Positions 8,995-63,784 of a stretch of 64,000 bases of DNA are shown one piece after another. How positions within the stretch are numbered: position 1 is the first letter of the stretch; each line of letters opens with the position of its first letter. A model generated the notes under the pieces. It saw only the letters and a program-made list of their open reading frames with translations. It made no database searches and was not told the origin of the DNA. This stretch comes from Terriglobia bacterium (GTDB taxonomy: Bacteria; Acidobacteriota; Terriglobia; JAJPHL01; JAPKYU01), in assembly GCA_965206645.1 (NCBI GenBank), contig CBDBKE010000004.1, forward strand, positions 1,920,001 through 1,984,000, in the 5' to 3' direction. Position numbers and translations under genes: made by a program.

Positions 8995-9031
8995 TCCTTA
9001 CTAAGGAACACCATACCATCCAGGCAGAACA

Positions 9032-9072: not shown

Positions 9073-9074
9073 TA

Positions 9075-38665: not shown

Positions 38666-38675
38666 GTTCATTCTC

Positions 38676-45300: not shown

Positions 45301-45324
45301 GCGTTCGCTGGTGTCAGTCGTCAC
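42305..45324 (-). pseudogene. hsdR: Type I restriction endonuclease subunit R, frameshifted near 42923
   Basis: FELKN, QHSAGSGKS, IIDEAH, FTATP, QTLSRLNR; C-terminus in a second frame (42305..42826). Confidence 0.88.
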
Positions 45325-46754: not shown

Positions 46755-47557
46755 TGGGAGTTACCCATTCGCGTTGACACGCAATCGTCGAGCTTGCGGT
46801 GGAGCAGTGAGATCAGGGACAGATAGTCCGCTGCATCATCCTCACCCTCCCAGAGAATCTTTGGTTCATGCGCTAATGGATTACGAACTGCTCCAAAGCA
46901 GCCCTTGAGCAGGGTCGCAAACCCCTTGTGCAGGGACTTCTCCGTTTCGGTTTGCAGCGCATTCATCGCAAGTAGCGGCCTTTCGATGGAGAAAACGCGG
47001 TCGACCAAGGCTGCTCCATCCGCCTCAATGCTGACCATATCGCGAATTCTCTGCGCCAATCCCTTGGTCGCCTCGAATACCGCGTGAAAGTAGTTAGCTT
47101 GCATTAGCTCCGTTCGGCAGTACTTGAGCACTTCCGGATGCAAGCGCCGACCCTGAAACTTGCTGCGGATCGTCTGAACGCGACGCTCCGCCTCATCAAG
47201 TGTCCGTGCAGCCTCTCGTTGTTTGAACTGGCCATCCGCACCGAGTTCTAAACCTGAGAATGCAAGAAGAGTATTCAGCTCGCTACGATGCTGCTCGAAG
47301 ACCTCTCTGCGTCCGACGAAACGCGTAGGTGTCAGAAAAGATTGAACGAAATCGAGTACTCGATTAGCGCACATGTCCCGCCGCTGCACGTTGAGGAACA
47401 CCCAATAGAGCCGACGCCACTTGGTAGATTGCTCCGAATCATCAGTCAGTTGCCGGTCTACCAGAACACGAGTGATATCCGATCCCGATCCACACTCACC
47501 CAGCAGTTTAGCTAGCCCTTCGATCTGACCTTCCGGCAAGCAGGCAACCTTACTCAC
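46751..47557 (-). CDS. TIGR02391 (Ymh-like) HEPN-domain protein
   Basis: TKWRRLY, NYFHAVFEATK, RNPLAH (Rx4H), SLLHRKLD. Confidence 0.82.
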   Translation of the reverse strand: MSKVACLPEGQIEGLAKLLGECGSGSDITRVLVDRQLTDDSEQSTKWRRLYWVFLNVQRRDMCANRVLDFVQSFLTPTRFVGRREVFEQHRSELNTLLAFSGLELGADGQFKQREAARTLDEAERRVQTIRSKFQGRRLHPEVLKYCRTELMQANYFHAVFEATKGLAQRIRDMVSIEADGAALVDRVFSIERPLLAMNALQTETEKSLHKGFATLLKGCFGAVRNPLAHEPKILWEGEDDAADYLSLISLLHRKLDDCVSTRMGNSQ

Positions 47558-49688
47558 GAGACGTTCTCCCCAATGATCTCCCCGAGTAGCCCTTCGGTCT
47601 CCTTCTCCAGAGTCAGGATGTCCGCGCGGATTTCCTCCAGCGAGCGCAGCGGCTGCGGCTTGTAGAAGTAGCGGGTGAAGCTGATCTCGTAGCCGGTCTT
47701 GACGCTCCCCGACATGTACCAGGCATCAGCCGCATAGGGCAGCACCTCGCGGCGAAAGAATGCCTCTATGCCGCCTTCTTCCAATAACGGCACCTGCTCG
47801 GTGTCCCGCAGTTCGCTGTCGGGTTCGTACTCAACCACGCGGCGCTTGCCTTTCACTGTGGATTCGAACAGACCCCGGATTGGGTCCGGCTCCATCCTGC
47901 CCGGTTTGTGGATCTTCTTGATGACGGGTTCGGCCGCCTCGTCCCGCGCGGCCAATGACGTCTGAAGCAACTTGTTTCGCTTGGCCGTCAACTGAACGCC
48001 ATGCTCGGAGACATCCGTTTCGACGGCAGCCATGAAGCGATTGAAGTCGAGGTGAGGTCCGGCTCCTAACGTCGCTGCCACACGGTCGGCGACGTTTGCA
48101 ATCGGCTCTTCCTGCGCTTCCCAGCAGGCGGCGCGGAAGCGGGCGCGTTGTTCGGGCGACAGATCGACGGCGAGCCGCAATGGTCGTTCGACCGTCACCT
48201 TCCAGTACCCGAACGTGGCGTTCGGGAATATCTTCGACTGCTCGGTTTCCTCAAACGCCAGGAAAGTGTCGCAGATGCGGGTGATGTCCTCCTCAGACAG
48301 CTCGCAGTTTTTCTCGCCCAGGTTCTTGCGGAGCGGCTTGAACCACGGCGTGCCATCGATGAGCTGTACCTTGCCCCGCCGATGCTCTGGTTTCCTGTTG
48401 CTGATCACCCAGATGTAGGTGGCGATGCTGGTGTTGTAGAACATGTTGAGCGGCAGGGCGACGATGGCTTCCAACCAGTCGTTTTCGATGATCCAGCGGC
48501 GGATATTGCTCTCGCCCTGCCCGGCGTCGCCGGTGAACAACGACGAACCGTTGTGGACCTCAGCGATGCGGCTGCCGAGCGGGGTGACCTGCTTCATCTT
48601 CGAGAGCATGTTTGCCAGAAACAGCATTTGACCGTCGCTAGAGCGGGTGATGAGTGAGTACTCGGCATCACCACCGTGTTCGATCAGAAAGCGCGGGTCC
48701 TTGATGCCTGCTTTGCCGCCCATGCGCTCCATGTCGCTCTTCCAGCTCTTGCCATAGGGCGGGTTAGAGAGCATGAAGTCGAACTCGCGGGACGGAAAAG
48801 CGTCGTTGGAGAGCGTCGAGTGTTCCGGACCCCCGACGATGTTGTCAGCGGCTTCCCCCTCACCTTTGAGGAGCAAGTCCGCCTTGGCAATGGCGTAGGT
48901 CTCGGAGTTGATTTCCTGGCCGTAGAGATGTGTGGCGACCTGCTTGCCTCGCTGTTTGGCGATCTGCGTCAACGCCTCCTCGGCCACCGTCAACATGCCG
49001 CCGGTGCCGCATGCACCGTCGTACACCAGATAGGTCCCCGAGTCGATCTGGTCGGCGACAGGCAGCAGGACCAGCTTCGCCATGAGCTTCACAGCATCGC
49101 GCGGGGTCCAGTGCTCGCCGGCCTCCTCGTTGTTCTCCTCGTTGAAGCGGCGGACCAGTTCTTCGAAGATCGTGCCCATCGCGTGGTTATCCAGGCCGGG
49201 GTGCTTGATCGACCCGTCGCCATGCAGAACCGGGTGGGGACTCAGGTTCACGTCCGGCGAGAGAAACTTCTCGATCAGCGTGCCGAGGGCGTCGGCTTTG
49301 GACAGGCGGGGAATCTGGTTCCGAAACTCGAACTTCTCCAGGATGTCCTGGACATTCGGCGAGAAGCCGTCGAGATATGCCTCGAAGTCGGCCTTGAGCT
49401 GCTGTTGGCTGGCGCGGGCCTTGAGGTGAACTTCGATGTGTTGTAGAACGCTTGGCCGGCGGCCTGACGCAGTGCCTGGTCCTGGTGGATGATCTTCCCC
49501 TTGTCGAGCGAGGTCTTCATCTCCAGCACTGCCGGCTTGCTCGGCTCCAGGAGCGAGTCGAGCCGGCGCAACACGGTCATGGGCAAGATCACATCCCGAT
49601 ACTTGCCACGGACGTAGAGGTCGCGCAGCACGTCATCCGCGATGCCCCAGATGAAGTTGGCGATCCAGTTGAGTTGGCTTCCCTCCAA
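47554..49688 (-). pseudogene. hsdM: Type I R-M methyltransferase subunit M, frameshifted near 49425
   Basis: IWGIADDVLRD, GEHWTPR, YDGACGTGGML, NPPY; N-terminus in a different frame. Confidence 0.88.
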
Positions 49689-50495: not shown

Positions 50496-51745
50496 TGACC
50501 TGACCGGCACTTTTTGTACCAAGTGGAAAGAGAGAGAATCCACTTGAGGAGGAAGTGAGGTCATGCCGACAAGGAGTTACAAGCCGGAGCAGATTGTAGC
50601 GGTGCTACGGCAGATAGAAGTGCAGATGGGGAACGGGAAGACTGCGCCCCAAGCCTGCAAAGAAGCTGGAATCCACACCCAAACCTACTACCGGTGGCGG
50701 AAGGAATACGGCGGGCTGAAGGTGGTGCAGGCAAAACGGCTAAAGGAGTTGGAGAAGGAAAACACGCGGCTGAAGCGGTTGGTAGCGGAGCTTTCTCTGG
50801 AGAAGCAGGTGCTGCGGGATGTGGCACAGGGAAACTTCTGAGCCCTGAGCGGCGGCGTTGTGCGGTGGAGCGTGCGTGGGAGCAACACGGGTTGTCGGAA
50901 CGGCATGCCTGCCGGCTGCTGGGGCAATGGCGAGGGACACAACGATACGAGCCGATTCATCGGGTGGACGAGGATGCTCTGACCCGAGCGATCATTGCCC
51001 TGGGAGCGAAGTACGGGCGATATGGCTACCGGAGGATCACAGCGTTGCTGCGGAGTGCGGGCTGGGAAGTGGGCAAGGACCGGGTGCAGCGGATTTGGCG
51101 GCGGGAAGGGCTGAAAGTGCCGCAAAAACAAAGGCCGCGAGGACGGCTGTGGCTGAACGACGGTTCCTGTGTACGACTGAGGCCGGAGCGACCGAACCAC
51201 GTGTGGAGCTACGACTTCATGAGTGCCAGAACGCACGAGGGGAGAACGCTGCGGCTGCTGACCTTGCTGGATGAGTACACGCGGGAATGCCTGGCGATCC
51301 GGGTGGAGCGGAGGATGGGCAGCCAACAAATCATTGAGGCGTTGTCGGACGTGATGTTGTGGCGAGGGATACCGGAACAGATTCGATCCGACAATGGTCC
51401 CGAGTTCATCGCCAAACAACTGCGCCAGTGGTTGGCAAATCTAGGGACCGGGACACTGTACATCGAACCGGGCAGTCCCTGGGAGAACGGGTACTGCGAG
51501 AGTTTCAATGGGAAGCTGCGGGACGAATGCCTGAATGGAGAGATCTTCTACTCGTTGAAGGAGGCACAGGTGGTGATTGAACAGTGGAGGGTGCAATACA
51601 ACACGGTGCGGCCGCACTCGGCGCTCGGCTATAGGCCCCCGGCGCCGGGGGCCTATAGCCCTCCCCTGCCACTGAAACCAGTTTCACAGCCCCAGGCTGC
51701 GATGTAAACTCTCACTACGGTTGGTACAAAAAATCGGTCTGGTCA
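50496..51745 (+). mobile_element. IS3 type B, copy 2
   Basis: 1250 bp; orfA 50563-50841, orfB to 51707; no target duplication. Confidence 0.95.
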
Positions 51746-52096
51746 CTGTCTCTCAGTGACGACGCATCGGCGAAGATCGCCTCGGAACTCTGCGGGCAGG
51801 TGACGAAGATCAAGGGATCCTACACCATCAGCGAATCCTCCAAGCACGCCGAAATCTCCCCGCTATCGGGTCGCGCCGGGGGCGGCGGCGGGAGCATGGG
51901 CGCCACCAAATCCTTCCGGGAACAGCGGGAGGCGATCTTTCACCCGCGAGACTTCGCGCTGCTCTCGAACTGTCAGGCGATCTGTCTGCCCTATGACGGC
52001 GCGCAAACGCTGGAGGCGTGCCGGGTCTACCTCAAGCCGCACTATCTCCCCAGAGAGCGGTCCTACTGGCGAGCGCGGGAAGCGGGGCAGATATGA
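51746..52096 (+). pseudogene. C-terminal remnant of a VirD4/TraD-like coupling protein
   Basis: LSDDASAKIASELCG..FHPRDFALLSNCQAICLPYDG; overlaps the VirB11-like start. Confidence 0.55.
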
Positions 52097-53058
52097 GCGC
52101 CGCCAGCGGCCTGGAGCATCTAAAACCGTTTTTGCCGGGCCTGGAGGACGTCCTGGCCGACCCGGAGGTGAGCGAGATCATGATTAACGGCCCCCATAAC
52201 GTCTGGGTCGAGCGGGGAGGGAAGCTCCTATCACACGATGCTCCCCGCCTCGATGCGGCGGCGCTGGAGCGGGCCGCGATCCATATCGCCCGGCCCTTGG
52301 GGCTGGACCCGGCCCACTCGCCCATCGTGGATGCCCGCTTGGAGGATGGCTCGCGGGTTGCGATCTGTGTGCCGCCCGCAAGTCCTCGCGTGGCTATTAC
52401 GGTGCGGCGCTTCGGCAAGCGCTCGTTTTCCGCCGATGATCTGGTGGGGCAAGGCGCACTCCCCGAAAATGTGCGGGCGGAAGCCGAGCGGGTGTTGTGC
52501 TCCCGACGCAACATCCTGGTTTCAGGCGGCACTGGATCGGGCAAGACCACCCTGCTTAACGCACTTATTGAATTGCTTCCCGACGACGAGCGCGTCGTCG
52601 CCATCGAGGACACGCTGGAGCTTCGCATTGATCGCTCTAGTTGCGTCCGCTTCGAGGCTCGCGGGCTGGAAACCGGCGCGGTGACGATCCGCAACCTGGT
52701 GCGCCACGCGCTTCGCCACCGCCCGGATCACATCGTGGTGGGCGAGGTCCGGGGCGGGGAGGCCGCTGATCTATTGCAAGCCCTCAATACCGGCCACGGC
52801 GGCTCCCTCACGACCGTACACGCCAACAACGCCGAGTCGGCCTTGTCGCGCATCGCCAGTTGCGCCATGCAGGGCGGCGGCGAGCTTCCCTGGGAGGTGA
52901 CCTGCCGGGGCGTGGTGGACGGCATCGCTATGGTGATTCACATGACCCGGCGAGAGGGACGTCGGTTCGTGGAGGAAGCGCTGCTCGTCCAGGGTTACAA
53001 CGCGCCGCAAAACCGCTGGCTTATCAAGCCGATCTGGACGGAACACGATGACGGATGA
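52093..53058 (+). CDS. VirB11/TrbB/CpaF-family secretion ATPase
   Basis: EIMING, GGTGSGKTT, IEDTLEL, RHRPDHIVVGEVRG, NTGHGG..TVHAN. Confidence 0.9.
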   Translation: MSAASGLEHLKPFLPGLEDVLADPEVSEIMINGPHNVWVERGGKLLSHDAPRLDAAALERAAIHIARPLGLDPAHSPIVDARLEDGSRVAICVPPASPRVAITVRRFGKRSFSADDLVGQGALPENVRAEAERVLCSRRNILVSGGTGSGKTTLLNALIELLPDDERVVAIEDTLELRIDRSSCVRFEARGLETGAVTIRNLVRHALRHRPDHIVVGEVRGGEAADLLQALNTGHGGSLTTVHANNAESALSRIASCAMQGGGELPWEVTCRGVVDGIAMVIHMTRREGRRFVEEALLVQGYNAPQNRWLIKPIWTEHDDG

Positions 53059-53488
53059 AGACTCTGAAGGACTTCGACCGGGAGCTCGGCCGGGGCGGTG
53101 AGGAGACGCTGGAAGTCCCGGCCTGGATCGCCGAACAAGACGGCGTCTTTCCCGAAGACGCAGGCCGCCGGACTCGCCGATCCGGAGCGGAAGGTGGATC
53201 TGGTAAAGCGCTCGGTCCGGCGTGGAGAGAGGAGAGGACGGGAGTTCGCGTCGGTTCTTCCCAAGACCACGTTCAACTTTTTCAGGGCTCCCCTGTGCTG
53301 CGATAAGCCATAACACCTTTCCGGAGGTCGGAGCGGACAGCGCGACCCTACTTAACAAAGCCCCAAGAGCGGAACTTCAACCTGCGTGTAGCGCTGATGC
53401 GACTGAGTTTTCAGCGTGGGGCAATCGTCATGGCAAGCTTTCACCCAGGTCGCTAATCGTTTTTCTGGACTCTTAAGGGAAGGCAAAT

Positions 53489-53749
53489 ATGGCCCGGACC
53501 AGCTATGAGGAAGGACGGGAAGAATTGATGCCGGGGAGCGCAGAGCGGCGAAATACGGATTTTCCCCTGACCGTTAGAGATGCTTCCATATACCTTGGTG
53601 TTAGCCCTCAAACCGTGTATCTTTGGGTCGAGCGAAAGCAGATTCCCCATCTCCGCGTGATGGGCCGGAACATCCGGTTTCTCAAATCGGATCTCGAGCC
53701 CTTCCGCGCAAGCTTCAGACAGGAGGTGGAGAATGGCAAGGCCGAGTAA
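53489..53749 (+). CDS. Excisionase-like HTH protein
   Basis: LTVRDASIYLGVSPQTVYLWVERKQIPHLRV..IRF; overlaps the integrase start. Confidence 0.85.
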   Translation: MARTSYEEGREELMPGSAERRNTDFPLTVRDASIYLGVSPQTVYLWVERKQIPHLRVMGRNIRFLKSDLEPFRASFRQEVENGKAE

Positions 53750-54875
53750 ACACGATGGCGTCGTTTATAAACGCAATGACGGCAGGATTCTCTGGATGTC
53801 CTATCGGGACCGTAGCGGTAAGCGGATCCGAGAGTCGACGTTTACCGAGGATTGGGATGAGGCGCAGCGGAAGCTCCGAGAGCGCCTCCAGGCAAGGGAC
53901 GATAGGATCTTGGACATTGTCCGGAAAGGAGAGCATTTTCGATTTGCTGAGTGGGTGGATTTTTTCTTGGAGAATTACTCGCAGCCTCCGATTCGCGCGC
54001 ACCGGACCCACGAAGCTAATCTGCGGTGCAGCGCGCATCTTAAGAAGGCTTTCGAGGACAGGAATTTGGGCGATCTCACAGCCGACGATGTGGAGTTCTA
54101 CTTGCGGCGCCGGCTGCAGGATCGAGTGCCAGTCCGAACTGCCGTAGGTGTCGTTCAGCGCGGGCGGCTCAAGCCCGCAACGGTGCATCAGGAATTGCGG
54201 GTACTGCGCCGAATGCTGAACGTCGCGGTGCGGAAGAAACTGCTTCCGGCAAATCCGTGTCTGGGAGTCGAGTTCCCCGTCAAAGTTAAGGGGCTCTTCC
54301 GGCCGCACTACATGTCCTGGTCCGAACAACAGAGAGTTGAACTTCAAGCGCCCGAGTATCTGCAAAACATTATTCGGATCATCACCGAGACCGGACTCCG
54401 CATATACAAGGAGCTGCTGCCGATGAAAAAGGATCAGGTGGACCTGGACAATGCGGTGGTCTGGATTGCGGATTCAAAGACGCCCGACGGAATCTCGGAG
54501 GTCCCACTGACCAACGTTGCTCTGGAAGCGTTTCGTGGTCAGATTCGAATCTCGGGGCCCGGCCCTTGGCTTTTCCCGAGCCACAATAACCCAAGCACGC
54601 ACCAAAAGACTCTGAAGACAGTCTGGCACGCCGTTTTGCGAAGGGCCAAGGTCCCTTACTTCCGCATCTACGATCTGCGCTCGACGTACGCGACACGGTT
54701 GAGCGCCGGCGGAGTGGCGGACGAGTGGGTTACGCAGCTTCTCCGTCAAGGGGACGCGAAAGTGTTCAAGAAATATTCGCAAATGAAGCTGCAAATGAAG
54801 CCTGAGGCTTTACAAAAGCTGAACCGGATGGCAAACGAGGCCAACCGGAGTTTTGTCACGGAGCGACCAAATTGA
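53733..54875 (+). CDS. Tyrosine recombinase / integrase
   Basis: TGLR, SKT, YDLRSTYATRL, C-terminal KKYS; adjacent to a tRNA fragment. Confidence 0.9.
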   Translation: MARPSKHDGVVYKRNDGRILWMSYRDRSGKRIRESTFTEDWDEAQRKLRERLQARDDRILDIVRKGEHFRFAEWVDFFLENYSQPPIRAHRTHEANLRCSAHLKKAFEDRNLGDLTADDVEFYLRRRLQDRVPVRTAVGVVQRGRLKPATVHQELRVLRRMLNVAVRKKLLPANPCLGVEFPVKVKGLFRPHYMSWSEQQRVELQAPEYLQNIIRIITETGLRIYKELLPMKKDQVDLDNAVVWIADSKTPDGISEVPLTNVALEAFRGQIRISGPGPWLFPSHNNPSTHQKTLKTVWHAVLRRAKVPYFRIYDLRSTYATRLSAGGVADEWVTQLLRQGDAKVFKKYSQMKLQMKPEALQKLNRMANEANRSFVTERPN

Positions 54876-54901
54876 GGGGTTTTGTCACGGTTTTGTCACG
54901 G
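54850..54901 (+). repeat. Three GTTTTGTCACGG direct repeats (putative integrase arm-type sites)
   Basis: Copies at 54850, 54879 and 54890. Confidence 0.75.
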
Positions 54902-54987
54902 TCGAGGGGTATTTGGCCCTCTCTGGGGGCGTTCTGGAGTTTCGCAAAATCAGGAAGTGGTTTAGAATCAATAGAGCGACTTCAGTC

Positions 54988-55027
54988 GGGCGGTTAGCTC
55001 AGTTGGTCAGAGCGCCTGCCTTACAAG
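54988..55027 (+). pseudogene. 5' half of tRNA-Val(TAC); att-site remnant
   Basis: GGGCGGTTAGCTCAGTTGGTCAGAGCGCCTGCCTTACAAG; 3' anticodon stem, T-arm and acceptor absent. Confidence 0.85.
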
Positions 55028-55902
55028 TGGCTACCTCTCCTCTTCTCCTTTCACTCTCTCCCTTCTTTTCCATAGCTTTACACTCATTCAGGGACTCTGC
55101 TTTCGCTCAGCACATAACCCTTTTTGGCTGTTTGACTTGCATTTCTGACACATTTTCGGCACAGCAGGAAGTTCATGAGAGCGACTGCCGTGGACAGATG
55201 CTCTGTTTGAAGATCGCCTCCGAGGGAGATTGCTATTCCCACTCATGGGCCGAGGCGCTCGTCTGCGATTACCAGTTGGCGCATGCCTCAAGCACAAATG
55301 CGTCCTGCCCTCTTCAGCTGGACCGGCACGGCCAGTCCGAAAATATCTGGATACAACCTGCAAACTGAGCGAGATACCAAATTGGGTCGTGCCACATTCG
55401 CACTTCGGAAAATGCCACACGCACTCCTTTGTCAGTGTGGCAATCTGGTTGACCCTCTCCTTGACCTCGGCAACTCTTAAACTCTTCCCGTCCGGCACCG
55501 ACTTTTGGGGCTCCATTCTTGTGGTTCATAGGTCCGAATCCGGCCCGCTCAACCGGCTCGTGATCCAAGTGGCGTAGCTGTCGATCGAGCGGCCCCGGTC
55601 CCGCGTCGCTGTCGGAAGTTCTCGCAGCGCAATCAAGCAATCGCTCGCCCCGTTGACATCCCCATACTCGGTACACACCCCCTGATCTGGCCGAGGATTT
55701 GAAGTAGCAAGTGAAGCTCTTGGCAGCCAACTACAGGGAGATCGCCGCAGCGTTGAGAAGGGTCTGAACACTATCCGGCATATCGTCCAGCGGCAGCAAA
55801 ACGGGCCGAATGTGCGTCAGCGCGCGTTCAAGTGCGGCTGGATTGCTGTTCGAGTCCGAGTGGATCCTTGTTCAAGTGTTAGTGGATTCGTGTTAAAGTG
55901 CG

Positions 55903-56520
55903 ATGGATTCAGCAAACATTATAATAAGTTTCGCCGCCATGATCGATTCTGATATCCGCTCGGCTCTCCATCGCAAGCGCCTCCGGCATCAGAGGTCGCA
56001 TCCCGACACCGTGGTCATCGATGAGCTTGGTCTGGCCCATGCCCGAAGCCGAATCGATGTCGCCGTGATCAATGGATATATCCATGGTTACGAGATCAAG
56101 AGCGCCCAGGACAACCTAGATCGCTTGGGAAGCCAGTTGGAAGTCTACCGACAGACGCTCCAGAAACTGACGCTCGTCACGGCCTCCAGGCACTTGTCTA
56201 GAATTCTGTCTGAAGTACCAGACTGGTGCGGTGTGATCGAAGCTAAGCAGGGACCACGGGGTGGAATACGGTTACATTCTGTCAGGTCTGCCAGGTCAAA
56301 CCCAGATATTGATCCCGTTATGCTGGCACACCTTCTCTGGAGACCGGAAATCCTCGACCTGCTCTCCAGGATTGGATACGCTCCGAAGGAACTGCGTCAC
56401 CCCCGGAAGCGGCTCTACGAGCTGCTATGCGAGGTCATGACGACTCGGGAATTGGCCGCCGCGATCCGCGAGTTCATGGCGCGCCGCCAAGTGTGGCGAG
56501 ATCATCCAGCACATGCGTGA
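55903..56520 (+). CDS. sce7726-family protein (PD-(D/E)xK-like)
   Basis: IDELGL..RIDVAVINGYIHGYEIKSAQDNLDRLGSQ..WCG. Confidence 0.78.
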   Translation: MDSANIIISFAAMIDSDIRSALHRKRLRHQRSHPDTVVIDELGLAHARSRIDVAVINGYIHGYEIKSAQDNLDRLGSQLEVYRQTLQKLTLVTASRHLSRILSEVPDWCGVIEAKQGPRGGIRLHSVRSARSNPDIDPVMLAHLLWRPEILDLLSRIGYAPKELRHPRKRLYELLCEVMTTRELAAAIREFMARRQVWRDHPAHA

Positions 56521-57568
56521 TGTGGTGATTGATCGCCACCTCCTTCCATCGTGTCAGATTGCTAGGGCCTTCCTGCCGTGCGGCGCATTTCGCGATGTAG
56601 TTATCACCGCTTGAATATCCCGGCCCCTTGAAAATGTTCTTGCTGACAAGATCCGCGCAGTAATCATGCATCTGCTTGGGATCGTCCCGAAACGCTCCGC
56701 CCTTGCGCACCGACCAACTACGCGGCGTCGTGTAGACGATCTTAGCTGCTGGCTTGATTATGCGCATGTCGCCCGCCGTGAATTCGGGATGGACGATCGT
56801 GTAGTCGCCGAAATTAGGGCGCCTCATCCCGGAGGGCAGTCTTTCCATCAGGGTCTGATAAAATAGCCAATCATGGCGCGGAATTTCATCGGTACCCTTC
56901 GCAACATCCCTAAACGTCTCGGGCATCGCTGTCCCGATCAAGACCAAATTTCGATACGCCTGCAGAGCGCTTAATTTGAGCAAGGTCACAATCATGGCGT
57001 TGGAGAATGCCCCATACGGCTCGAAATTTGGGGCAGCCAAGTCAACGATCAGATCAGTATTCGGTAGCTTGACACCAAGCGAAGATGCCACAGCTCGCAC
57101 CTGCGCATCCGGATTGGGTTTCATCAGGTCTTCGAGCCGAACTGATATGGCCACTCCAAGACCGTCCCTCTTCACAATGGCCGCGACTGCCCGGACCGTA
57201 TTTCCATCTACGTTGAGGGGGATTGCGGGGACGGCATTCGCATCGAACGCTCGCAATTCTTCAAAAACGTAAGTGAAAATATCTCGACCATCATCCATGG
57301 GCTTCTGGACGATACTCTTGTGCACCCCGACCCATGCCGACCGCTTACCCCACTTCGATTTGTAGCGGGCTGCAAAGGGATGGACGTGCTCCTGGGCGGA
57401 TTTCTTCGGCCGCCATTCCTCGAAATCAAACTCAATTGCTGGAATGGTGATGGACGGCACGATTCGATCCTTGACCGGGTCGGTAAGGCGGAGGAGGGCT
57501 TGGTATTCACCCTGCCGCCACCGAAGGGCGGGCACATACGTGTCGCTAGTCAAGATCATTAACCGCAT
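56474..57568 (-). CDS. Beta family protein (phage P4 beta / sce7725-like)
   Basis: YVPALRWRQGEYQAL, FGDYTIVHP, KIVYTT, YSSGD, WKEVAINHHI. Confidence 0.82.
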   Translation of the reverse strand: MRLMILTSDTYVPALRWRQGEYQALLRLTDPVKDRIVPSITIPAIEFDFEEWRPKKSAQEHVHPFAARYKSKWGKRSAWVGVHKSIVQKPMDDGRDIFTYVFEELRAFDANAVPAIPLNVDGNTVRAVAAIVKRDGLGVAISVRLEDLMKPNPDAQVRAVASSLGVKLPNTDLIVDLAAPNFEPYGAFSNAMIVTLLKLSALQAYRNLVLIGTAMPETFRDVAKGTDEIPRHDWLFYQTLMERLPSGMRRPNFGDYTIVHPEFTAGDMRIIKPAAKIVYTTPRSWSVRKGGAFRDDPKQMHDYCADLVSKNIFKGPGYSSGDNYIAKCAARQEGPSNLTRWKEVAINHHITHVLDDLATLGGAP

Positions 57569-58823
57569 CCTCGAATTGTGTGCGGACCTGATTCTGACCG
57601 ACGAGATCGCTTAGAATTGTGTAGTTCCCACGCTCTTTGCGAATGCGGCCTGCGATGATGTTCGGATGAATGCCGAGATTCTCAGCGTCGATGCGCACCG
57701 CTTCCTCGGAAAGCGCGAAGCGCGACAAGCATCGCTCCCAAAGGCCTTCAGGGATTAGCGCGTTCAGCGCGAATTGATCCGCTTCGGCCTCAATGGTATC
57801 GGTGTCTGATGCGCTCTCCTCATCGAAGAAATCATAGCGCAGCCCGTCTAGCAGATGCAGGAATACGTGACCAAGTTCGTGGAGTAGCACGAACCAGAAA
57901 TTGTCCAAACGGTCATATCGAAGCGTGAGGCCAATAACCGGCCGTTCTGCGTCGCCGAGCATGGCCGCACCATCGAGATATGATCCAGGAAGATCCCGTT
58001 CAATGATGAAAGCGATACCTTTCTCCGCGAGTAGTCGGCTCGCACGCTTCGCGCCATCTTTGAACCTTGTCAGGTTTACCAACTCCGGTAGCCAACGATC
58101 ATCCGGCTCGAACTCGGCAAGCTCGTTATGCGTTGCGAGGTCTCGTGCACGCTCCAGGATGCGCGCCTGCCAAGCCAATAGTGCGTACTCGTTCGGCACG
58201 TTTCCGCTGCGCATCTTCTTTCGATGGTACGCCGTCGCAAATTGCGGACCCGCAGCACGGAGGAAGTATTCTTTGGCTTTCTCTAACTGGTTCGCGTTTC
58301 GCGGTACATCGAACCATTTGCGCTTGATCATCTCCCTGTATGGGAGCTGACCCCAGACGATATTATCTGCATCGCCCCACACGAATACGGAGCTGCCGGC
58401 CTGTTCGGCTCCCTCGAACATTCCAGAGGTCTTGACGCCAAGCGCACGGGAGACTTCGATTAATCTGCCGAGGCTCGCGCCCATGTAGTCGGTTGCTTCG
58501 TATCGCTGTATCTGCTGCGGCCTCATATCGAGCTTCTTAGCGAGATTCGTCTGGTTCATGCCAGCCGCGATCCGAGCCTGCACAAGCACGTGCGGCAGTT
58601 CTTCGAGAGCATAGGTCTTCGAGAAAGAAATCTGTCCGGACTTGAGTAGTTTGTACTCCGAGAGTTCCACCTCGATCTCCGCGATCTGACTCTTGAGCGC
58701 ATTGATTTCGGCCTGCTTCAGCCACAGCTGATCCGCTTCCCGACCCTCCGCAGCCGACAATGCAGTCTTCAGCTTTGCGAGTTCCGTGCTTGATACGCGG
58801 TATTGTTTTGTGCTGTAAATCAT
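57546..58823 (-). CDS. XRE-HTH plus ImmA/IrrE (M78) metallopeptidase
   Basis: ARIAAGMNQTNLAKKLDMRPQQIQRYE HTH; LTLRYDRLDNFWFVLLHELGH; EAEADQFA. Confidence 0.88.
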   Translation of the reverse strand: MIYSTKQYRVSSTELAKLKTALSAAEGREADQLWLKQAEINALKSQIAEIEVELSEYKLLKSGQISFSKTYALEELPHVLVQARIAAGMNQTNLAKKLDMRPQQIQRYEATDYMGASLGRLIEVSRALGVKTSGMFEGAEQAGSSVFVWGDADNIVWGQLPYREMIKRKWFDVPRNANQLEKAKEYFLRAAGPQFATAYHRKKMRSGNVPNEYALLAWQARILERARDLATHNELAEFEPDDRWLPELVNLTRFKDGAKRASRLLAEKGIAFIIERDLPGSYLDGAAMLGDAERPVIGLTLRYDRLDNFWFVLLHELGHVFLHLLDGLRYDFFDEESASDTDTIEAEADQFALNALIPEGLWERCLSRFALSEEAVRIDAENLGIHPNIIAGRIRKERGNYTILSDLVGQNQVRTQFEDAVNDLD

Positions 58824-59299
58824 GGCTGCCCCTTTCGCAAAACAACCGGATCGGCCGAAAGCGAAACAGAAACGATTCCTTTCTTTTTGCCGGTGAAACG
58901 ATCCAATTGCAAAAACTCAACAAATGTCTGGCTCACATCTGCGCACGTCATGGACGATGGGAAAAACTCTCCCTTGAATGCCGCTTTCTGCGCAGCTCGG
59001 CCATTGTTGAAATCAAGAAAAATAGGGTCGAGCTTGCTGTGATCGACCCCGACGGGATCCCAACAGACATCGAAGTCTCTTGGCCGCAGCTTTCCCGTCA
59101 CATAGCTTCCGTCCAGGTAGATTATCAAACACCCAGCTGACCAAAGCCGTCCCGCGGCCTCCACCAAGCCGTTGAACAGATCGCGCCGCCACGTGTTCGT
59201 AGCAAATGTGGTCTCAACCTCATCAAGATCAGCCTGGTGTACACTCGGCGGCAGAACTGCCCAAGGCGATCCTTCCAAAGTGACGAGCCCTGGAAGCAT
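58820..59299 (-). CDS. DUF6932-like nucleotidyltransferase-fold protein
   Basis: LPPSVH, YLDGSYVTGKLRPRDFD (GS..DxD), KKGIV. Confidence 0.72.
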   Translation of the reverse strand: MLPGLVTLEGSPWAVLPPSVHQADLDEVETTFATNTWRRDLFNGLVEAAGRLWSAGCLIIYLDGSYVTGKLRPRDFDVCWDPVGVDHSKLDPIFLDFNNGRAAQKAAFKGEFFPSSMTCADVSQTFVEFLQLDRFTGKKKGIVSVSLSADPVVLRKGQP

Positions 59300-59509
59300 A
59301 TTACAACAATACTATTGTAATGCGGCCTTGTCAAGAGCTATCCCAAGGCCTGTAAAGCCCGCAAGAGGCACCCTGATCTCAGTTCAGAAATCCGGGGCCC
59401 CTCAGAATCTATTCAAGGGACCGACGACTATTCGATTCGCTGCAGAATAGTCTCCGCTGACATGTGGCAGGGGTAACAATCACCCTGTCGGGTCCACGCC
59501 CCGCACCCT

Positions 59510-59695
59510 GTGGAAGAACCTTCACGGAAGAACGTCCAGCAGGCGAAGGCCCATGAGCCGACAAAGCGGCTCCGTGTCGACGTGCCGGTATCAGCCCATC
59601 GGCGCGTCAAGACAGCGTGTAGCGCAACCCGCCGTCAGATGATCGCTGAGCCAGGAGACTGGATCGCAGCCTATATAATTGGAGCTTGCAAATGA
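59510..59695 (+). CDS. ParG-like ribbon-helix-helix protein (possibly degenerate)
   Basis: TKRLRVDVPVSAHRRVKTAC. Confidence 0.45.
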   Translation: MEEPSRKNVQQAKAHEPTKRLRVDVPVSAHRRVKTACSATRRQMIAEPGDWIAAYIIGACK

Positions 59696-59942
59696 GGTCG
59701 GCTGGCGGCAGGTGGGGATGCCCCCGCTGATGCGCGTGTTGCCCTGGCGAGGATTCCTGCTGAAATGAAGCTTGTGGCCCCATACCGTTCACTTTGGCAA
59801 GAATACATCCTGCAATTTCCTTCGCGCTGCGTTCCATTCGCCGGAGGATAGCGGTCCGGTTCCAGGTGCCCCGTTCCGGTTGCGATTCCCCCATCAGACT
59901 TGCCGCCTACGACCGGAGAACGGGTGTGGGGTTGCGCCATTA

Positions 59943-60140
59943 GCCGCTGGCCTTCGCTGGTTCCGCTTTGTTCCGACGCAAGGCTCGCGCCAGAACGGTC
60001 CCCTCGCCTGGCAGGCGTCTGGCACTCGCTCTTGCCCTTGTCGGCCCTGCCCGTCACTGGCTTCGGCGGCGCTGTTCCTCCCGTGTCAGGGTTTGGCCGT
60101 TTCCGCCATTTGCGGGTGAGCGGAAACGCTCACAAACCCT
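59943..60140 (+). promoter_or_regulatory. Nested long inverted repeats upstream of a small gene
   Basis: CCGACGCAAGG/CCTTGTCGG, GCCAGAACG/CGTCTGGC, AGGGTTTG/CAAACCCT, CGTTTCCGC/GCGGAAACG. Confidence 0.5.
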
Positions 60141-60164
60141 TAAACTTTCAGGAGGAAACACATC

Positions 60165-60413
60165 ATGGCTAACCCCAAACCCATCTCTGAAGTCCGCATC
60201 GGTCGCGTCAAGGCTGCGATTTGGCCGAACGGAACCGACGGCCGCACGCGGCACAATGTCACCTTCTCCCGTCTCTACAAGGACGGCGAGGAATGGAAGA
60301 GCACGCAGAGCTTCAGTCGCAACGACCTGTTGCTGCTCGCCAAAGTGGCCGATCAGGCCCACTCGCGTATCTTCGAGCTTCAGCAGGCAGAAGAGCCTCA
60401 GGCAGAATCCTAG
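60165..60413 (+). CDS. Small mobile-element protein, possibly PC4-like ssDNA-binding
   Basis: AGGAGG RBS; VKAAIWPN..VTFSRLYKDGEEWKSTQSF..DLLLL. Confidence 0.7.
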   Translation: MANPKPISEVRIGRVKAAIWPNGTDGRTRHNVTFSRLYKDGEEWKSTQSFSRNDLLLLAKVADQAHSRIFELQQAEEPQAES

Positions 60414-60493
60414 TGCGACGCGCATCAGAGAGCGGCGGGGCTAGTCCCCGCCGCGATCCGATCCTTTCGACAAGGAGAATGAACATGAACTGC

Positions 60494-60949
60494 TGCTGTC
60501 TAAGACTCCTGGTTCGATCGGGCAAGTCTCCGCAGACCGGGCCTACGACACGGGTTCCTGCTACGAGGCCGTGCTCCAGCACGACGCTATCGTGACGATC
60601 TTGCCGCGACGCAATGCACGATGCAGCCGAGACTCTCATCCGCCTCCGTGGCGTGCGATGCGTGATACCCATCTCCGGCGTATTAGGACGCAGGGCCGTT
60701 ATGAGTGGCGGAAGTCGAGTGGCTGCACTCGCCAGAGCGTGGCGGAGAATGCGGTCTCACGGTACAAGGCGATACTCGGGGTAAGCCTCTCGGCCCGCAC
60801 GGTCAAGAACCAAAAAGTCGAAGCCGCGATCAAGTGCGCTGTGCTGAACCGGATGGCGGAGCTTGGAATGCCACGATCGGAGCGCGTGTACTGAGGCGGA
60901 TGAGCTTCTCGGCCCGGTTCGCCGCGAGCGCGAATTACGCAACAACGCC
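60494..60949 (+). mobile_element. IS5 (IS903 group) 3' partial copy
   Basis: Matches the last ~456 bp of 61729-62790, including the IR GCAACAACGCC. Confidence 0.9.
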
Positions 60950-61032
60950 GCTTCGATCCGCTCCCGCACGCCGTCCACTGTGTGGACCGAAAGGAAGTTC
61001 TGGCGCGTCGCTTCTCTTCAGGTAAGCGTGCA

Positions 61033-61350
61033 TCACAAGCCGACAGAACTCCTGAGAATGGAGTCAAGAGGTTGAATATCCGAAACATCTACCGTCGCGC
61101 TCGCCATGGTAAGATCGTAGTTTGTCTGCATATTCATCCAGTAAAGAGGCGTTGTCCTGAACACTTTTGCCAGTCGAAATGCCGTATCCGGTGTCATCGA
61201 CGTCTGGCCCTTTACGATGCGCTCTATGCGCGTACGGGGTACGCCCAATTTCTTTGCCAAGGCACCGGCGCTCATCTCAAGGGGTTTGAGGTACAGTTCG
61301 TCCAGAACCTCACCAGGATGCATCGGAGCAAGAATATCAGTCATTTTCAT
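61033..61350 (-). CDS. higA: HigA family antitoxin
   Basis: HPGEVL..LAKKLGVPRTRIERIVKG..WMNMQ. Confidence 0.9.
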   Translation of the reverse strand: MKMTDILAPMHPGEVLDELYLKPLEMSAGALAKKLGVPRTRIERIVKGQTSMTPDTAFRLAKVFRTTPLYWMNMQTNYDLTMASATVDVSDIQPLDSILRSSVGL

Positions 61351-61356
61351 TGATCC

Positions 61357-61638
61357 TCAGTGGTAGTCCACAACCTCGACTTCATCCGGTCCACTATCGG
61401 TCCAGACAAAACAGATACGCCATCGCCTGTTGACCCGAACCGAATAGCGACCTTTGCGGTCGCCTGATAATTTCTCAAGATGATTGCCTGGCGGAAAGCG
61501 AAGATCCTCCAACTCAACCGCCGCATTCAACGCGACCAGCATGGCACGGGTCCTTCGAAGCAAGTCGGGCTGGAATCCCTTTGGTGATAGACCTCGGGCA
61601 ATCTTTTCGGTCCGCTTACTCTTAAAACCCCGTATCAC
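61357..61638 (-). CDS. higB: HigB (RelE/ParE-family) toxin
   Basis: [36 protein letters not shown]; toxin upstream of antitoxin. Confidence 0.9.
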
Positions 61639-61728
61639 GGGATGATATGTATCACGCAATGATACCATCCGTCAACCTGTTTACAGCCGCATGTAAACTC
61701 TAGGTGGCCCGTAACGCCCGTACTGCGT

Positions 61729-62790
61729 GGCGTTGTTGCAGAAATCTGACTCCATCCCCAACGCTCTCCCCCCTGATAGGCTAGGGGAGGGGCAAAAGCG
61801 ACTACACCTTCCGATATAAAGTTCGCAACTGGCCGGAGTACAACCGGGCTCTGGTGAAACGTGGGCAGCTGACACTGTGGTTCGACACGGAGGCAGTCGC
61901 TGCCTGGCGTCATCCAGGACCCTTCGAAGGGCGAGGCCGGCCCAAGGTCTACGCGGATGCGGCGATCCAATGTGCGCTGGTCCTGAATTCGGTGTTTCAC
62001 CTCAACCTACGGACCACTCAAGGGTTCCTTCAATCCATCGTGGCGCTCATGGCGCTCGACCTCCCAGTGCCCAACTACAGCACGGTGAGCCGAAGGCAAA
62101 GCGCCGTCGACGTCCTACTGAGTGTAGGGCCCACGGATCGACCACGACATGTCGTCATCGATTCGACGGGCCTGAAGATCTACGGAGCCGGTGAGTGGCA
62201 CATCAGAAAACACCGAACCCTCCGCCGTAGGACATGGCGAAAGCTCCACCTAGGCGTCGATGAGACGACGAAAGAGATCGTTGCGATGGACCTGACTGCA
62301 AGCAACGTCCACGACGCCCGAAGGCTCTCTTCGTTGCTGTCTAAGACTCCTGGTTCGATCGGGCAAGTCTCCGCAGACCGGGCCTACGACACGGGTTCCT
62401 GCTACGAGGCCGTGCTCCAGCACGACGCTATCGTGACGATCTTGCCGCGACGCAATGCACGATGCAGCCGAGACTCTCATCCGCCTCCGTGGCGTGCGAT
62501 GCGTGATACCCATCTCCGGCGTATTAGGACGCAGGGCCGTTATGAGTGGCGGAAGTCGAGTGGCTGCACTCGCCAGAGCGTGGCGGAGAATGCGGTCTCA
62601 CGGTACAAGGCGATACTCGGGGTAAGCCTCTCGGCCCGCACGGTCAAGAACCAAAAAGTCGAAGCCGCGATCAAGTGCGCTGTGCTGAACCGGATGGCGG
62701 AGCTTGGAATGCCACGATCGGAGCGCGTGTACTGAGGCGGATGAGCTTCTCGGCCCGGTTCGCCGCGAGCGCGAATTACGCAACAACGCC
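61729..62790 (+). mobile_element. IS5-family (IS903 group) element
   Basis: IRs GGCGTTGTTGC / GCAACAACGCC. Confidence 0.9.
61854..62735 (+). CDS. IS5 transposase (true start upstream apparently mutated)
   Basis: IDSTGLK, WRKLHLGVD, ADRAYD; in-frame upstream RYKVRNWPEYNRAL lacks an ATG. Confidence 0.85.
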   Translation: MKRGQLTLWFDTEAVAAWRHPGPFEGRGRPKVYADAAIQCALVLNSVFHLNLRTTQGFLQSIVALMALDLPVPNYSTVSRRQSAVDVLLSVGPTDRPRHVVIDSTGLKIYGAGEWHIRKHRTLRRRTWRKLHLGVDETTKEIVAMDLTASNVHDARRLSSLLSKTPGSIGQVSADRAYDTGSCYEAVLQHDAIVTILPRRNARCSRDSHPPPWRAMRDTHLRRIRTQGRYEWRKSSGCTRQSVAENAVSRYKAILGVSLSARTVKNQKVEAAIKCAVLNRMAELGMPRSERVY

Positions 62791-62879
62791 CCGCCTTGTA
62801 CTTCCTGATCGACATCTCCAGTTTCCTCCTTCGTGAGATTCTCTCTCACTTCAGCTGGTACAAAAGATCGGTCTGGTCA
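62791..62879 (-). mobile_element. Left-end remnant of another IS3 variant
   Basis: Reverse complement TGACCAGACCGATCTTTTGTACCA..GGAGG..ATG (MSIRKYKA). Confidence 0.7.
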
Positions 62880-62968
62880 CGCTGAGCCAGCGGACTCGTT
62901 CTGTGGAGAGGAAAAGCTACGTTCGATGGGATAGATCTAATCTTGGGAAATTCTGATGCACCGCAACT

Positions 62969-63784
62969 CTACTGGCCGAACCGGTAGATGATTGCCCAGC
63001 GTACGATTCCAAGCTTGTTCTCAACATTGTAAGAGCACGGCCTTCGAGGGTTCCCCGGACCGCACCGGTTATTTCCGGAACGATTCACTTTATGCGTACC
63101 CCGCCCGAAATCCAGATACGAGCCTTCGAATCGCAGGCTCCAGGCAGCGGTCAGCGGAATTTCGATCCCACCCCCGATCACCCAGCCGATCTCCGTCGAG
63201 CTGTCGTGAAAGGAATCGTCAGGATCCACCTCTGGCGGCATGCCTGGGGAGAAGTCGATGTCCGTTACCGAATTGGCGATTCTGGCGGTTGCCAATCCCC
63301 CGGTGGCAAATACCCTTGCACCTTCGATGGACTGTTCAATCCCGGCGCGCACCGTGGTGATCCATCGAAACCTTGCTTCCGCAGTCTCGTCCAGACCGAC
63401 GGGGTCGAGCTGTCTCGTTTTCGCCGACAGGTCACCGAATGTCCCGTCCAACTCGATCCTGAGCGGAGCGCCGCCGAGGGTGAACTTCTTCCCGATCAAT
63501 CCCCCGCCGACAACCCCCGTATTGCCGTAATCGAATATCGAACCGGGATGACCCCAGTTCGCAAAGCCATCGACATCGACGATCCGGTTGGCGATGCGCC
63601 AGACGCCGCCTAAGCCACCCGCATAAGTTTCTGCCCATTTCAGAGTGGCCTCGTTGCTCTGGGCGCTCGCCGGAGTGCCGTTTGCGAGCATGAAAAGGAG
63701 CGGCAGCACCACAAACACGTGACGCCATTCGGAGCCGCGACTGGAGGACGGTCGAGGGTTTCTTTCTAGGGTTTTCTTGATCAT
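62969..63784 (-). CDS. Outer-membrane beta-barrel protein (Omp25/Omp31-like)
   Basis: Signal peptide; YAGGLGG, TVRAGI, GWVIGGGIE..WSLRFEGSYLDFG, terminal YRF. Confidence 0.8.
   Translation of the reverse strand: MIKKTLERNPRPSSSRGSEWRHVFVVLPLLFMLANGTPASAQSNEATLKWAETYAGGLGGVWRIANRIVDVDGFANWGHPGSIFDYGNTGVVGGGLIGKKFTLGGAPLRIELDGTFGDLSAKTRQLDPVGLDETAEARFRWITTVRAGIEQSIEGARVFATGGLATARIANSVTDIDFSPGMPPEVDPDDSFHDSSTEIGWVIGGGIEIPLTAAWSLRFEGSYLDFGRGTHKVNRSGNNRCGPGNPRRPCSYNVENKLGIVRWAIIYRFGQ

Follow-up and report, generated by a model that had tools for sequence, protein, structure and literature searches.

A conserved four-gene cassette with a DUF6932 nucleotidyltransferase in a Terriglobia genome, a probable anti-phage system of the PD-lambda-2 / gop-beta-cII kind

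We analysed a stretch of 64,000 nucleotides (nt) from the genome of a Terriglobia bacterium (GCA_965206645.1, contig CBDBKE010000004.1, positions 1,920,001 to 1,984,000 of the forward strand; hereafter the window, in whose numbering coordinates are given). It carries a cassette of four genes within 3.4 kb, encoding a DUF6932 nucleotidyltransferase (NTase), a protein that combines a helix-turn-helix (HTH) domain with an M78 peptidase, a protein of the P4 Beta family (renamed TIM-B in a recent preprint) and, convergent with the other three, a nuclease-like protein of the P4 cII / sce7726 family. The first three genes are also referred to as positions A, B and C. The gene set holds up as a genuine unit, and its genes are under purifying selection. 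An anti-phage role of the abortive infection (Abi) type is the most likely one because of the homology to two tested systems, and we consider it rather probable that the cassette is of the PD-lambda-2 / gop-beta-cII ('TIM-B') kind, acts probably by abortive infection, and has spread horizontally.

For PD-lambda-2, gop-beta-cII and the wider group of TIM-B systems, activity against phages is either proven or predicted. The variant described here is suited to mechanistic work on Beta, the central protease and cII: it is compact, it is strictly conserved across phyla, its residues and interfaces can be read from alignments, and its first gene is predicted to encode an assayable enzyme. Newly described are the operator, the predicted leaderless start, the predicted complex of the NTase with the peptidase protein, and an N-terminal module of the peptidase protein that swaps together with the upstream gene. 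Three concrete predictions that can be tested at low cost result, namely a 20-bp operator, a leaderless start, and an interface between the NTase and its clamp (residues 3-49 and 103-114 of the peptidase protein).

Gene content, conservation and distribution

Gene calls were taken from the listing of open reading frames (ORFs) of the window with their translations (Table 1). Genes 1 and 2 overlap by 4 nt (58820-58823), genes 2 and 3 by 23 nt (57546-57568), and genes 3 and 4 share a dual-coding segment tail to tail. The first-pass annotation of this DNA had listed the same four ORFs with overlaps of 4, 23 and 47 nt, and the ORF listing gives identical coordinates. The motifs it had pointed out (GS..DxD, HELGH and D..EIK) are likewise found in the translations. 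They correspond to G64-S65 and D75-x-D77 (x being F in the window) of the DUF6932 protein, H315-E-L-G-H319 of the peptidase protein and D52...E64-I-K66 of cII. No variation of the motif residues is seen among 56 distinct sequences of the first protein, 57 of the second and 56 of the third. In comparisons with distant loci, the similarity of cII starts at 55933, in favour of the ATG at 55939 and against a start at 55903; the true start of cII is likely to be 55939.

For a survey of relatives, the peptidase protein was scanned over one genome per species. The resulting 62 loci (61-98% identity) comprise, by record title, 48 from Alphaproteobacteria, three each from Acidobacteriota and Gammaproteobacteria, two each from Nitrospirales, Binatia and unassigned Pseudomonadota, and one each from Longimicrobiales and Chloroflexota. 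The loci come from at least six phyla, and in 59 of the 62 tblastn recovers the complete set of four with gene order and strands unchanged, far more often than chance would give. Of the three exceptions, L041 and L077 are interrupted by the end of a contig, and L069 has another ORF downstream. Full-length ORFs of all four genes are present in 54 of the 59 loci, the other five being affected by truncation, insertion or frameshift (L034, L056, L073, L078) or cut by the contig start (L066). Among the 58 complete loci, the NTase and peptidase genes overlap by 4 nt in 53, the B and Beta genes by 8-29 nt in all 58, and the Beta and cII genes by exactly 47 nt in 40 and by 35-85 nt in 57. The ratio of nonsynonymous to synonymous substitution (dN/dS, Nei-Gojobori) lies between 0.06 and 0.3 per gene in most informative pairs; the exceptions are near-substitution-free pairs and the DUF6932 comparison of the window with L020 (0.83 at a dS of 0.03). 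The four genes had initially been described as an intact module of defence or toxin-antitoxin (TA) type that joins an NTase/HTH-peptidase pair to a beta/nuclease pair. The analysis bears this out, and the module is conserved and mobile as well: that the two pairs might rarely co-occur is contradicted by their joint presence in 59 of 62 close relatives, and both dyads also occur separately elsewhere.

The peptidase protein of the window shares 82% identity with a copy from Rhodospirillales and 80% with one from Nitrospirales, against no more than 61-62% with those from Bryobacterales, a pattern that indicates horizontal transfer. Homology to distant loci extends from 55933 to 59321-59341 and covers just the four genes and their promoter. 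With the closest foreign locus, L020 (98%), it extends over 4.36 kb from 54988 to 59348, the left end falling exactly at a tRNA fragment (see below). The same four genes are found on the Agrobacterium plasmid pAt2788b at 54% identity, also with a tail-to-tail overlap and with a reverse transcriptase and a helicase adjoining; on a Sinorhizobium plasmid, a 77% match overlies genes for an XRE-family, a beta-family and a hypothetical protein.

Beta itself is rare (6 of 400 genomes sampled from one class) and occurs, in these loci and on plasmids, in varied architectures: Beta with cII (L087), B with Beta (L088, L084), and a stand-alone M78 peptidase with Beta, with or without cII, after a small and possibly membrane-bound protein (L089, L090); HigB with an ImmA/IrrE protein is found without Beta (L085). 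These architectures match the picture of TIM-B systems drawn in the preprint (bioRxiv 10.64898/2026.10.19.760177). In L069, an alphaproteobacterial metagenome-assembled genome, the place of Beta and cII after the NTase and peptidase genes is taken by a 268-residue ORF, whose overlap with the 3' end of the peptidase gene is 14 nt; together with a further ORF on the opposite strand (Table 1) it may represent an alternative downstream module. In L083, on plasmid pAC1530 of Acinetobacter nosocomialis, NTase and peptidase genes that are 37% identical lie in a Tn7-like element. Beta ends there as a 66-residue ORF; next come a transposase gene of the IS30 family and the blaNDM-1/ble region, and cII was not found at this locus.

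The cassette might accordingly be read as two independent systems placed side by side, a TA pair of NTase and HTH-peptidase and a pair of Beta and cII. Beta and cII stand alone in prophage Rac-SA53 and in L087, DUF6932 accompanies a B-like protein together with DUF4186 and radical SAM genes in two plasmid loci (L094, L095; see below), and A and B have outlasted the loss of Beta on the Acinetobacter plasmid. We nevertheless regard two separate systems as quite improbable, since the four genes stay together in 59 of 62 loci, B and Beta overlap in every complete locus, a single predicted promoter with its operator precedes three genes, and defence by PD-lambda-2 requires C along with A and B (PMC9519451).

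Protein families, the predicted complex and the operator

The product of gene 1 matches Pfam DUF6932 at 8.4e-32. Among the PADLOC models it matches PDC-M63A (7.8e-7); with the E limit raised to 10, the sole matches are PDC-M63A and JetB, and the model of the HigB-like PD-Lambda-2_A does not match. Residues G64, S65, D75, D77 and E111 are invariant among 53 sequences. The AlphaFold2 (AF2) model has a predicted local distance difference test (pLDDT) score of 88.5. Compared with the PDB by Foldseek, it retrieves nothing at E <= 0.001, the top rows being MNT antitoxins (E > 0.1). By VIA-align against 48,161 chains, the scores are weak: 2rff at Z 5.1 (root-mean-square deviation, rmsd, 5.3; 99 residues aligned), HI0073 at Z 5.0 and the HEPN-MNT structure 8xeh at Z 4.6, with Pol-beta-fold enzymes forming the majority of the 50 best rows. 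Weak as they are, these scores are mutually concordant, fit the invariant residues (GS, DxD and E111) and agree with a minimal NTase fold. Matches in the ESM Atlas are to DUF6932 clusters only.

The peptidase protein consists of an N-terminal helical region (residues ~1-75), an Xre-type HTH (~78-135), a middle region and an M78 (ImmA/IrrE) zinc peptidase, with 113 invariant residues. It matches Peptidase_M78 (7.2e-9) and HTH_3 (4.5e-8) in Pfam and PD-Lambda-2_B (PDLC03982) in PADLOC at 1.7e-77, the latter over residues 151-419 only; lesser PADLOC matches are RmrA (4.3e-11) and capP (1.2e-9). The product of gene 3 matches Pfam Beta_protein (PF14350) at 7.7e-83 and PD-Lambda-2_C (PDLC03983) at 2.1e-43. 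Its match to the P4-type 'beta' model of PADLOC is marginal (6e-5) and limited to the N-terminus (residues 10-42), and a hidden Markov model of Beta built here matches P4 beta at 5.4e-6. There are 61 invariant residues, many of them charged. Judged from its AF2 model (pLDDT 85.3), Beta is clearly a TIM barrel, with a TIM-barrel match at E 1e-5 in Foldseek and a top Z of 13.2 in VIA-align. Archaeosine tRNA-guanine transglycosylase (TGT, 1iq8) is found at Z 12.1 (rmsd 4.4, 267 residues aligned) and QTRT2 at Z 10.9 (275 aligned), the longest alignments except for that of one apiosidase, which also aligns over 267 residues. The product of gene 4 has no match in Pfam; it matches NCBIfam sce7726_fam (NF033832) at 1.1e-47 and PADLOC 'cll' (PDLC02989) at 1.2e-29, and its residues E41, D52, E64 and K66 are invariant among 56 sequences. 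A profile search of PDB sequences gave a best E of 0.7 for DUF6932 and 0.14 for cII and nothing at E <= 1 for Beta, hence no credible hit.

A complex of the NTase with the peptidase protein is predicted with ipSAE values of 0.86, 0.86 and 0.67 in three runs (median 0.86), the best of three controls reaching 0.00. Out of 80 solved complexes, 58 reach this mark, as do 2 out of 110 mismatched pairs; these counts apply only roughly, since own alignments were used. The runs share at least 78% of their contacts, at a partner pLDDT of at least 83. The predicted interface joins residues 3-49 and 103-114 of the peptidase protein to residues 10-13, 70-72, 82-101 and 113-137 of the NTase; among the predicted contacts are those of residues 41-46 of the peptidase protein with NTase residues 95-97 and 113-114. 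The invariant residues Q103, Q104, Q106 and R107 fall in the stretch 103-114, which we take to be the recognition helix of the HTH, going by the Pfam HTH_3 register and by comparison with 434-type repressors. Searches by sequence gave no solved relative for DUF6932 and, for the peptidase protein, solved relatives of the HTH only.

The N-terminal module of B and the upstream gene swap together, which lends the predicted interface support from gene neighbourhoods; an exception is L084, with the full N-terminus but no NTase. The evidence is threefold. On a Roseovarius plasmid (L094) and a Tolypothrix plasmid (L095), a DUF6932 homologue (E of 4e-36 and 1.6e-53, respectively) overlaps the gene of a 487-residue protein that shares just the first ~135 residues of B, with a weak M78 match in L095 only. 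In L085, where HigB is the upstream gene, the B profile aligns only from position 126. Finally, the PD-Lambda-2_B model is limited to residues 151-419. The 487-residue gene is followed by DUF4186 instead of Beta or cII, and then by an annotated radical-SAM gene in L094 and a hypothetical gene in L095. This set resembles a further candidate conflict system that uses the same dyad of NTase and clamp.

A palindrome with the consensus TTACAACATTATTGTTGTAA is found 1-3 nt before the NTase ATG, with at most three mismatches, in 58 of 61 upstream regions (the window included); the other three carry the variant TACAACA-N4-TGTTGTA. The window has a single copy, against a chance expectation of 0. The upstream DNA is otherwise unconserved across loci, save for a cTTG at the -35 position. 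In a promoter scan of 55600-59500 the sole match is at 59334-59306 (10 of 12 positions), and as shuffled sequences give a mean of 2.0, this count is not above chance; the promoter is supported by its position and by the conservation of the cTTG and the -10 across loci. Because the -10 lies within the palindrome and ends 6 nt from the ATG, the mRNA should be leaderless, with a predicted transcription start at or beside the first base of the gene 1 ATG (59299). RNA polymerase should be blocked by any protein that occupies the palindrome, since this covers the -10.

The operator accompanies the B-type HTH. Half-sites of the form ACAAC..GTTGT also precede B-type genes in L084, where B is the first gene, and in Agrobacterium (L082), and two ACAAC-A6-GTTGT palindromes precede the DUF6932 gene of the cyanobacterial variant L095 on the Tolypothrix plasmid; such half-sites were not found before the HigB-type operon of L085. 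The palindrome occurs upstream of cII in none of 59 loci. By eye, a recurring CTTGG-type motif, GTCAGGTGAGTCAGAATGCCACCTTGGCTTGGAGCAGAAC, is seen upstream of cII in alphaproteobacterial loci (e.g., L024, L028, L032, L036 and L038); it is not present in the window copy and may be a cII promoter or regulatory site.

Genomic setting

The cassette is accompanied in the window by genes for a VirB11-like ATPase, an excisionase-like HTH protein and a tyrosine integrase. The first-pass annotation had placed a tRNA att site nearby. A tRNA-Val fragment of ~43 nt is indeed present, but no tRNA gene: ARAGORN finds none in the window, nor does Rfam in 53000-61500 (E <= 1). The first 40 nt of the fragment occur seven times in the genome, one occurrence being the intact tRNA-Val(TAC). 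A second copy of the segment 51746-63597 (11.8 kb) lies at the end of another contig (C3:1-11847). The two copies differ by ~7% over the VirB11-like, excisionase and integrase genes up to the tRNA fragment and are 100% identical from ~55000 to 63000; the identity of the module in both makes this pair uninformative on selection. A third copy, of the integrase part (96%), is found beside the intact tRNA-Val (C4:2048783-2051487). The two long copies look like two related tRNA-Val-targeting integrative elements abutting one cargo segment, or like a recent conversion between them, and all three suggest a family of such elements in which the att-type repeat is a site of recombination or conversion.

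The window further contains a type I restriction-modification set (Table 1), in which hsdS and hsdM are separated by a Hypoth_Ymh (PF09509) gene. The hsdR-like ORF has partial HSDR_N and T1R_D3 matches and may be truncated. Of the neighbours that had been called broken, hsdM and VirD4 are not confirmed as such: hsdM has an N6_Mtase match without internal stop over model positions 3-279 of 311, and as to VirD4, Pfam T4SS-DNA_transf (PF02534) matches nothing in the genome. On the other side, a higBA pair lies outside the operon at 1.7 kb from the cassette. An insertion sequence (IS) of 1.25 kb (50497-51746) has more than 40 further copies of ~99-100% identity on all four contigs; the genome is IS-rich. 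An 876-residue PSCyt1/PSCyt2/PSD1 protein (planctomycete-type cytochrome, DUF1549/DUF1553; 38655-41285, plus strand) is unrelated to the cassette.

Table 1. Features of the cassette, its surroundings in the window, and selected loci of the survey (window coordinates unless a locus is named).
Feature	Position	Strand	Remarks
Gene 1 (position A), DUF6932 minimal Pol-beta-fold NTase	58820..59299	-	159 aa
Gene 2 (position B), HTH-M78 peptidase protein	57546..58823	-	425 aa
Gene 3 (position C), P4 Beta-family / TIM-B protein	56474..57568	-	364 aa; TIM barrel (predicted)
Gene 4, P4 cII / sce7726-family PD-(D/E)xK nuclease-like protein	55903..56520	+	205 aa; convergent with gene 3
Dual-coding tail-to-tail overlap of genes 3 and 4	56474..56520	both	47 nt
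Palindromic operator (predicted)	59301..59320	.	20 bp; TTACAAtAgTATTGTTGTAA on minus strand; 1 nt upstream of gene 1 ATG
Sigma-70-like promoter TTGACA-17-TATTGT (predicted)	59306..59334	-	-10 inside operator, ending 6 nt before ATG
5' fragment of tRNA-Val(TAC), att-type remnant	54988..55030	+	~43 nt; first 40 nt = 5' part of intact tRNA-Val(TAC)
Type I restriction-modification set	42802-49251		hsdR-like 840 aa, hsdS-like 477 aa, hsdM 565 aa
higB / higA pair	61033-61668	-	HigB-like_toxin 1.9e-14; HTH_3 1.8e-9; 1.7 kb from cassette, outside operon
IS-type transposase ORF	61854-62735		after higBA
L069 downstream ORFs	7277-8083; 8337-9212	+; -	268 aa; 291 aa; neither with Pfam match
DUF6932 + 487-aa HTH protein + DUF4186 locus	L094:2028-5405; L095:2061-5405		Roseovarius, Tolypothrix plasmids

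The surroundings of the other cassettes were surveyed by means of the nearest ORFs of at least 180 residues to the left and right of each complete locus (58 loci). These amount to 202 ORFs, which form 165 clusters; representatives of 121 clusters were scanned. Mobile-element families (Pfam) in these flanks are Resolvase (3), Recombinase (2), T4SS-DNA_transf (2), TrwB (2), TrbI and RepA; defence families (PADLOC, Pfam) are AbiEii (2), AbiEi, SIR2, HerA, ThsB-like, SoFic, mad8 (2) and a TOTE primase. The cassette could also serve mainly as an addiction or stabilisation module of TA type for plasmids and integrative elements and contribute nothing real to defence against phages. It does sit on conjugative plasmids and beside integrases, resolvases and type IV secretion system (T4SS) genes, its operon architecture is TA-like with predicted auto-regulation, and the window genome holds two identical copies, each beside a related integrase. 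A mere addiction role is improbable all the same: it was for anti-phage activity that the two tested relatives were isolated or assayed (PMC9519451, PMC9122126), four conserved genes, two of them extra enzymes, exceed what plasmid addiction needs, and the flanks hold defence genes as well (AbiE, SIR2-HerA, ThsB-like, SoFic).

Proposed working and comparison with known systems

The anti-phage reading can be put into steps as follows. A single sigma-70-type promoter would give rise to a leaderless mRNA for the DUF6932-NTase, the HTH-M78 peptidase and Beta (TIM-B), and the HTH of the peptidase protein would bind the palindrome over the -10 and thereby repress its own operon. The NTase, whose catalytic triad is intact, would be bound by the peptidase protein, through its N-terminal helices and the face of its HTH, in a TA-like complex, as predicted by the complex models. 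Catalytic residues show no variation in any of the four proteins. By analogy with the tested relatives we infer the further course: a phage cue would activate the M78 peptidase, or lift a restraint exerted by the TIM-barrel enzyme Beta; the freed NTase would then nucleotidylate a cellular target, and the operon would be de-repressed. The convergent cII, a putative PD-(D/E)xK nuclease, might act as a second or back-up effector whose expression is coupled via transcription across the 47-nt overlap.

A more elaborate scheme, which we put forward as doubtful, is a modular 'clamp-and-cut' switch. Here a swappable toxin and its cognate N-terminal clamp on the HTH-M78 protease would be combined with a constant sensor core of TIM-B and the convergent nuclease. 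The clamp and the DNA-reading helix would jointly grip an active NTase, such that sequestration and operator occupancy are mutually exclusive; phage-induced self-cleavage by M78, gated by the product of a TIM-B nucleobase transfer, would free the NTase onto a target in translation or replication, and read-through of the 47 nt would toggle the nuclease.

Several points weigh against the anti-phage reading in the form given above. The PD-Lambda-2_A model misses gene 1, such that the tested genetics of A and B may not transfer to the cassette. In PD-lambda-2, it is overexpressed B and not A that is toxic (PMC9519451), a poor fit to an NTase toxin, and the nearest folds of DUF6932 are MNT antitoxins, again by weak matches (Z ~5, Foldseek E > 0.1). 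L084 has a full-length B including the NTase-binding N-terminus, together with Beta, yet neither NTase nor cII. The assignment of Beta to the TGT enzymes is not decisive, as unrelated TIM barrels reach Z 13.2 versus 12.1 for 1iq8. The survey was confined to relatives that share 61% identity or more with B, hence the co-occurrence of the four genes partly reflects shared descent, and the Acinetobacter plasmid, which retains A and B with Beta cut off, indicates that they are not obligately linked. Finally, the flanks are heterogeneous and contain many housekeeping genes, and since the flank counts come without a background control, no enrichment is claimed.

Some of these points suggest the opposite polarity, which we consider possible, though clearly the less favoured assignment of roles. 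DUF6932 would then be an antitoxin or regulator, like MntA in HEPN-MNT, that binds and perhaps nucleotidylates the peptidase protein and keeps it inactive, the toxic components being the peptidase protein and/or cII. According to Vassallo et al. 2022 (PMC9519451), B of PD-lambda-2 is toxic alone and rescued by A; DUF6932 has its best fold matches among MNT antitoxins and in HI0073; and the predicted interface covers the recognition helix of B (103-114), as would be expected for a modulator of B. On the other hand, the fold matches of antitoxin type are weak (Z ~5), Pol-beta NTases are counted among the effectors or toxins of the upstream position (bioRxiv 10.64898/2026.10.19.760177), and sister systems carry bona fide toxins (HigB, RES, 2TM, Gop) at that position. 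We retain the anti-phage reading with the NTase as the effector.

Minimal-NTase folds are also found in HEPN-MNT systems, whose MNT antitoxins are the nearest solved folds of gene 1. No Pfam HEPN match at E <= 0.01 is present in the three neighbouring cassette proteins. The PADLOC candidate PDC-M63 shares with the cassette the PDC-M63A match of gene 1; the cassette has no PDC-M63B-like partner, this place being taken by the HTH-peptidase. An HTH with an M78 peptidase after a toxin-like gene presumably also likens the cassette to RosmerTA, ImmR/ImmA, DdrO/IrrE and CapH/CapP. The RmrA and capP matches of B are far weaker than its PD-Lambda-2_B match, and, as far as we know, RosmerTA-type pairs and protease switches are two-gene systems or separate repressor/protease pairs, none of them with Beta or cII.

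In PD-lambda-2 of E. coli, A is HigB-like, B is an Xre-peptidase and C is related to a P4 antitoxin; the system is grouped with Abi systems (PMC9519451). The cassette resembles it in its small first gene, in the Xre-HTH and M78 peptidase of B, and in a P4-Beta-family C directly downstream. It differs in that the first gene encodes a DUF6932 NTase instead of a HigB-like RNase, in the first ~150 residues of B, which the PD-Lambda-2_B model does not cover, and in the added convergent cII gene.

The gop-beta-cII system of satellite phage P4 guards against lambda and P1 (Rousset et al. 2022, PMC9122126) and is triggered by phage orf184 (bioRxiv 10.1101/2023.04.06.535777). The P4 record contains gop, beta and a convergent cII, annotated by RefSeq as 'sce7726 family protein'. 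As in the cassette, a Beta-family protein is followed by convergent cII/sce7726, and in P4 a toxic gene lies co-oriented upstream of beta. P4 has Gop where the cassette has NTase and HTH-peptidase, and the 'gop' model is absent from the PADLOC matches of all four cassette proteins. Furthermore, beta and cII of P4 are 27 nt apart, in contrast to the 47-nt overlap of the cassette; in prophage Rac-SA53 they overlap tail to tail by 41 nt. A tblastn search of phages with Beta found Rac-SA53, but neither P4 nor PD-lambda-2, and a blastn search of E. coli genomes with beta-cII of Rac-SA53 recovered that prophage type only (93 genomes, at least 97.9% identity). The pair of beta and sce7726 pointed out in the first-pass annotation thus exists; it is not novel, being P4 beta and cII itself.

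The closest description is that of TIM-B systems in a preprint of October 2026, section 33 of which renames Beta and relates it to deazaguanine transglycosylases (bioRxiv 10.64898/2026.10.19.760177). The description is made in silico, from sequence. Partner effectors listed there are HigB, REase (restriction endonuclease), a Pol-beta effector, GNAT, sirtuin, RES, caspase and 2TM. Between effector and TIM-B the preprint notes a metallopeptidase, which may or may not carry an HTH, and P4-type versions have a convergent, overlapping REase gene. The cassette shares TIM-B, the co-oriented upstream Pol-beta effector, the HTH-metallopeptidase between them and the convergent, overlapping REase, and its NTase is likely the Pol-beta effector type of the preprint. 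In the main text of the preprint the term DUF6932 does not occur and the Pol-beta effector is not given a Pfam name, and its section 33 makes no mention of an operator, a leaderless start or an NTase-peptidase interface. A full-text literature search by component families gave no paper on the four-gene variant, judged by title and abstract.

The combination of the four genes, at first taken to be an unrecognised one, is hence to be revised: genes 2 and 3 are PD-lambda-2 B and C, and the layout is sketched in the preprint (bioRxiv 10.64898/2026.10.19.760177). With respect to a named system, the match extends to B, C, cII and the TIM-B layout, but not to the HigB-like A or to Gop. If current annotation rules require the HigB-like A gene, which we assume for the PADLOC rule, they would probably miss the cassette. 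Lacking both the HigB-like A and Gop, the cassette is filed here as a variant within the TIM-B/PD-lambda-2 kind, rather than as a kind of its own, and as a member of neither named system.

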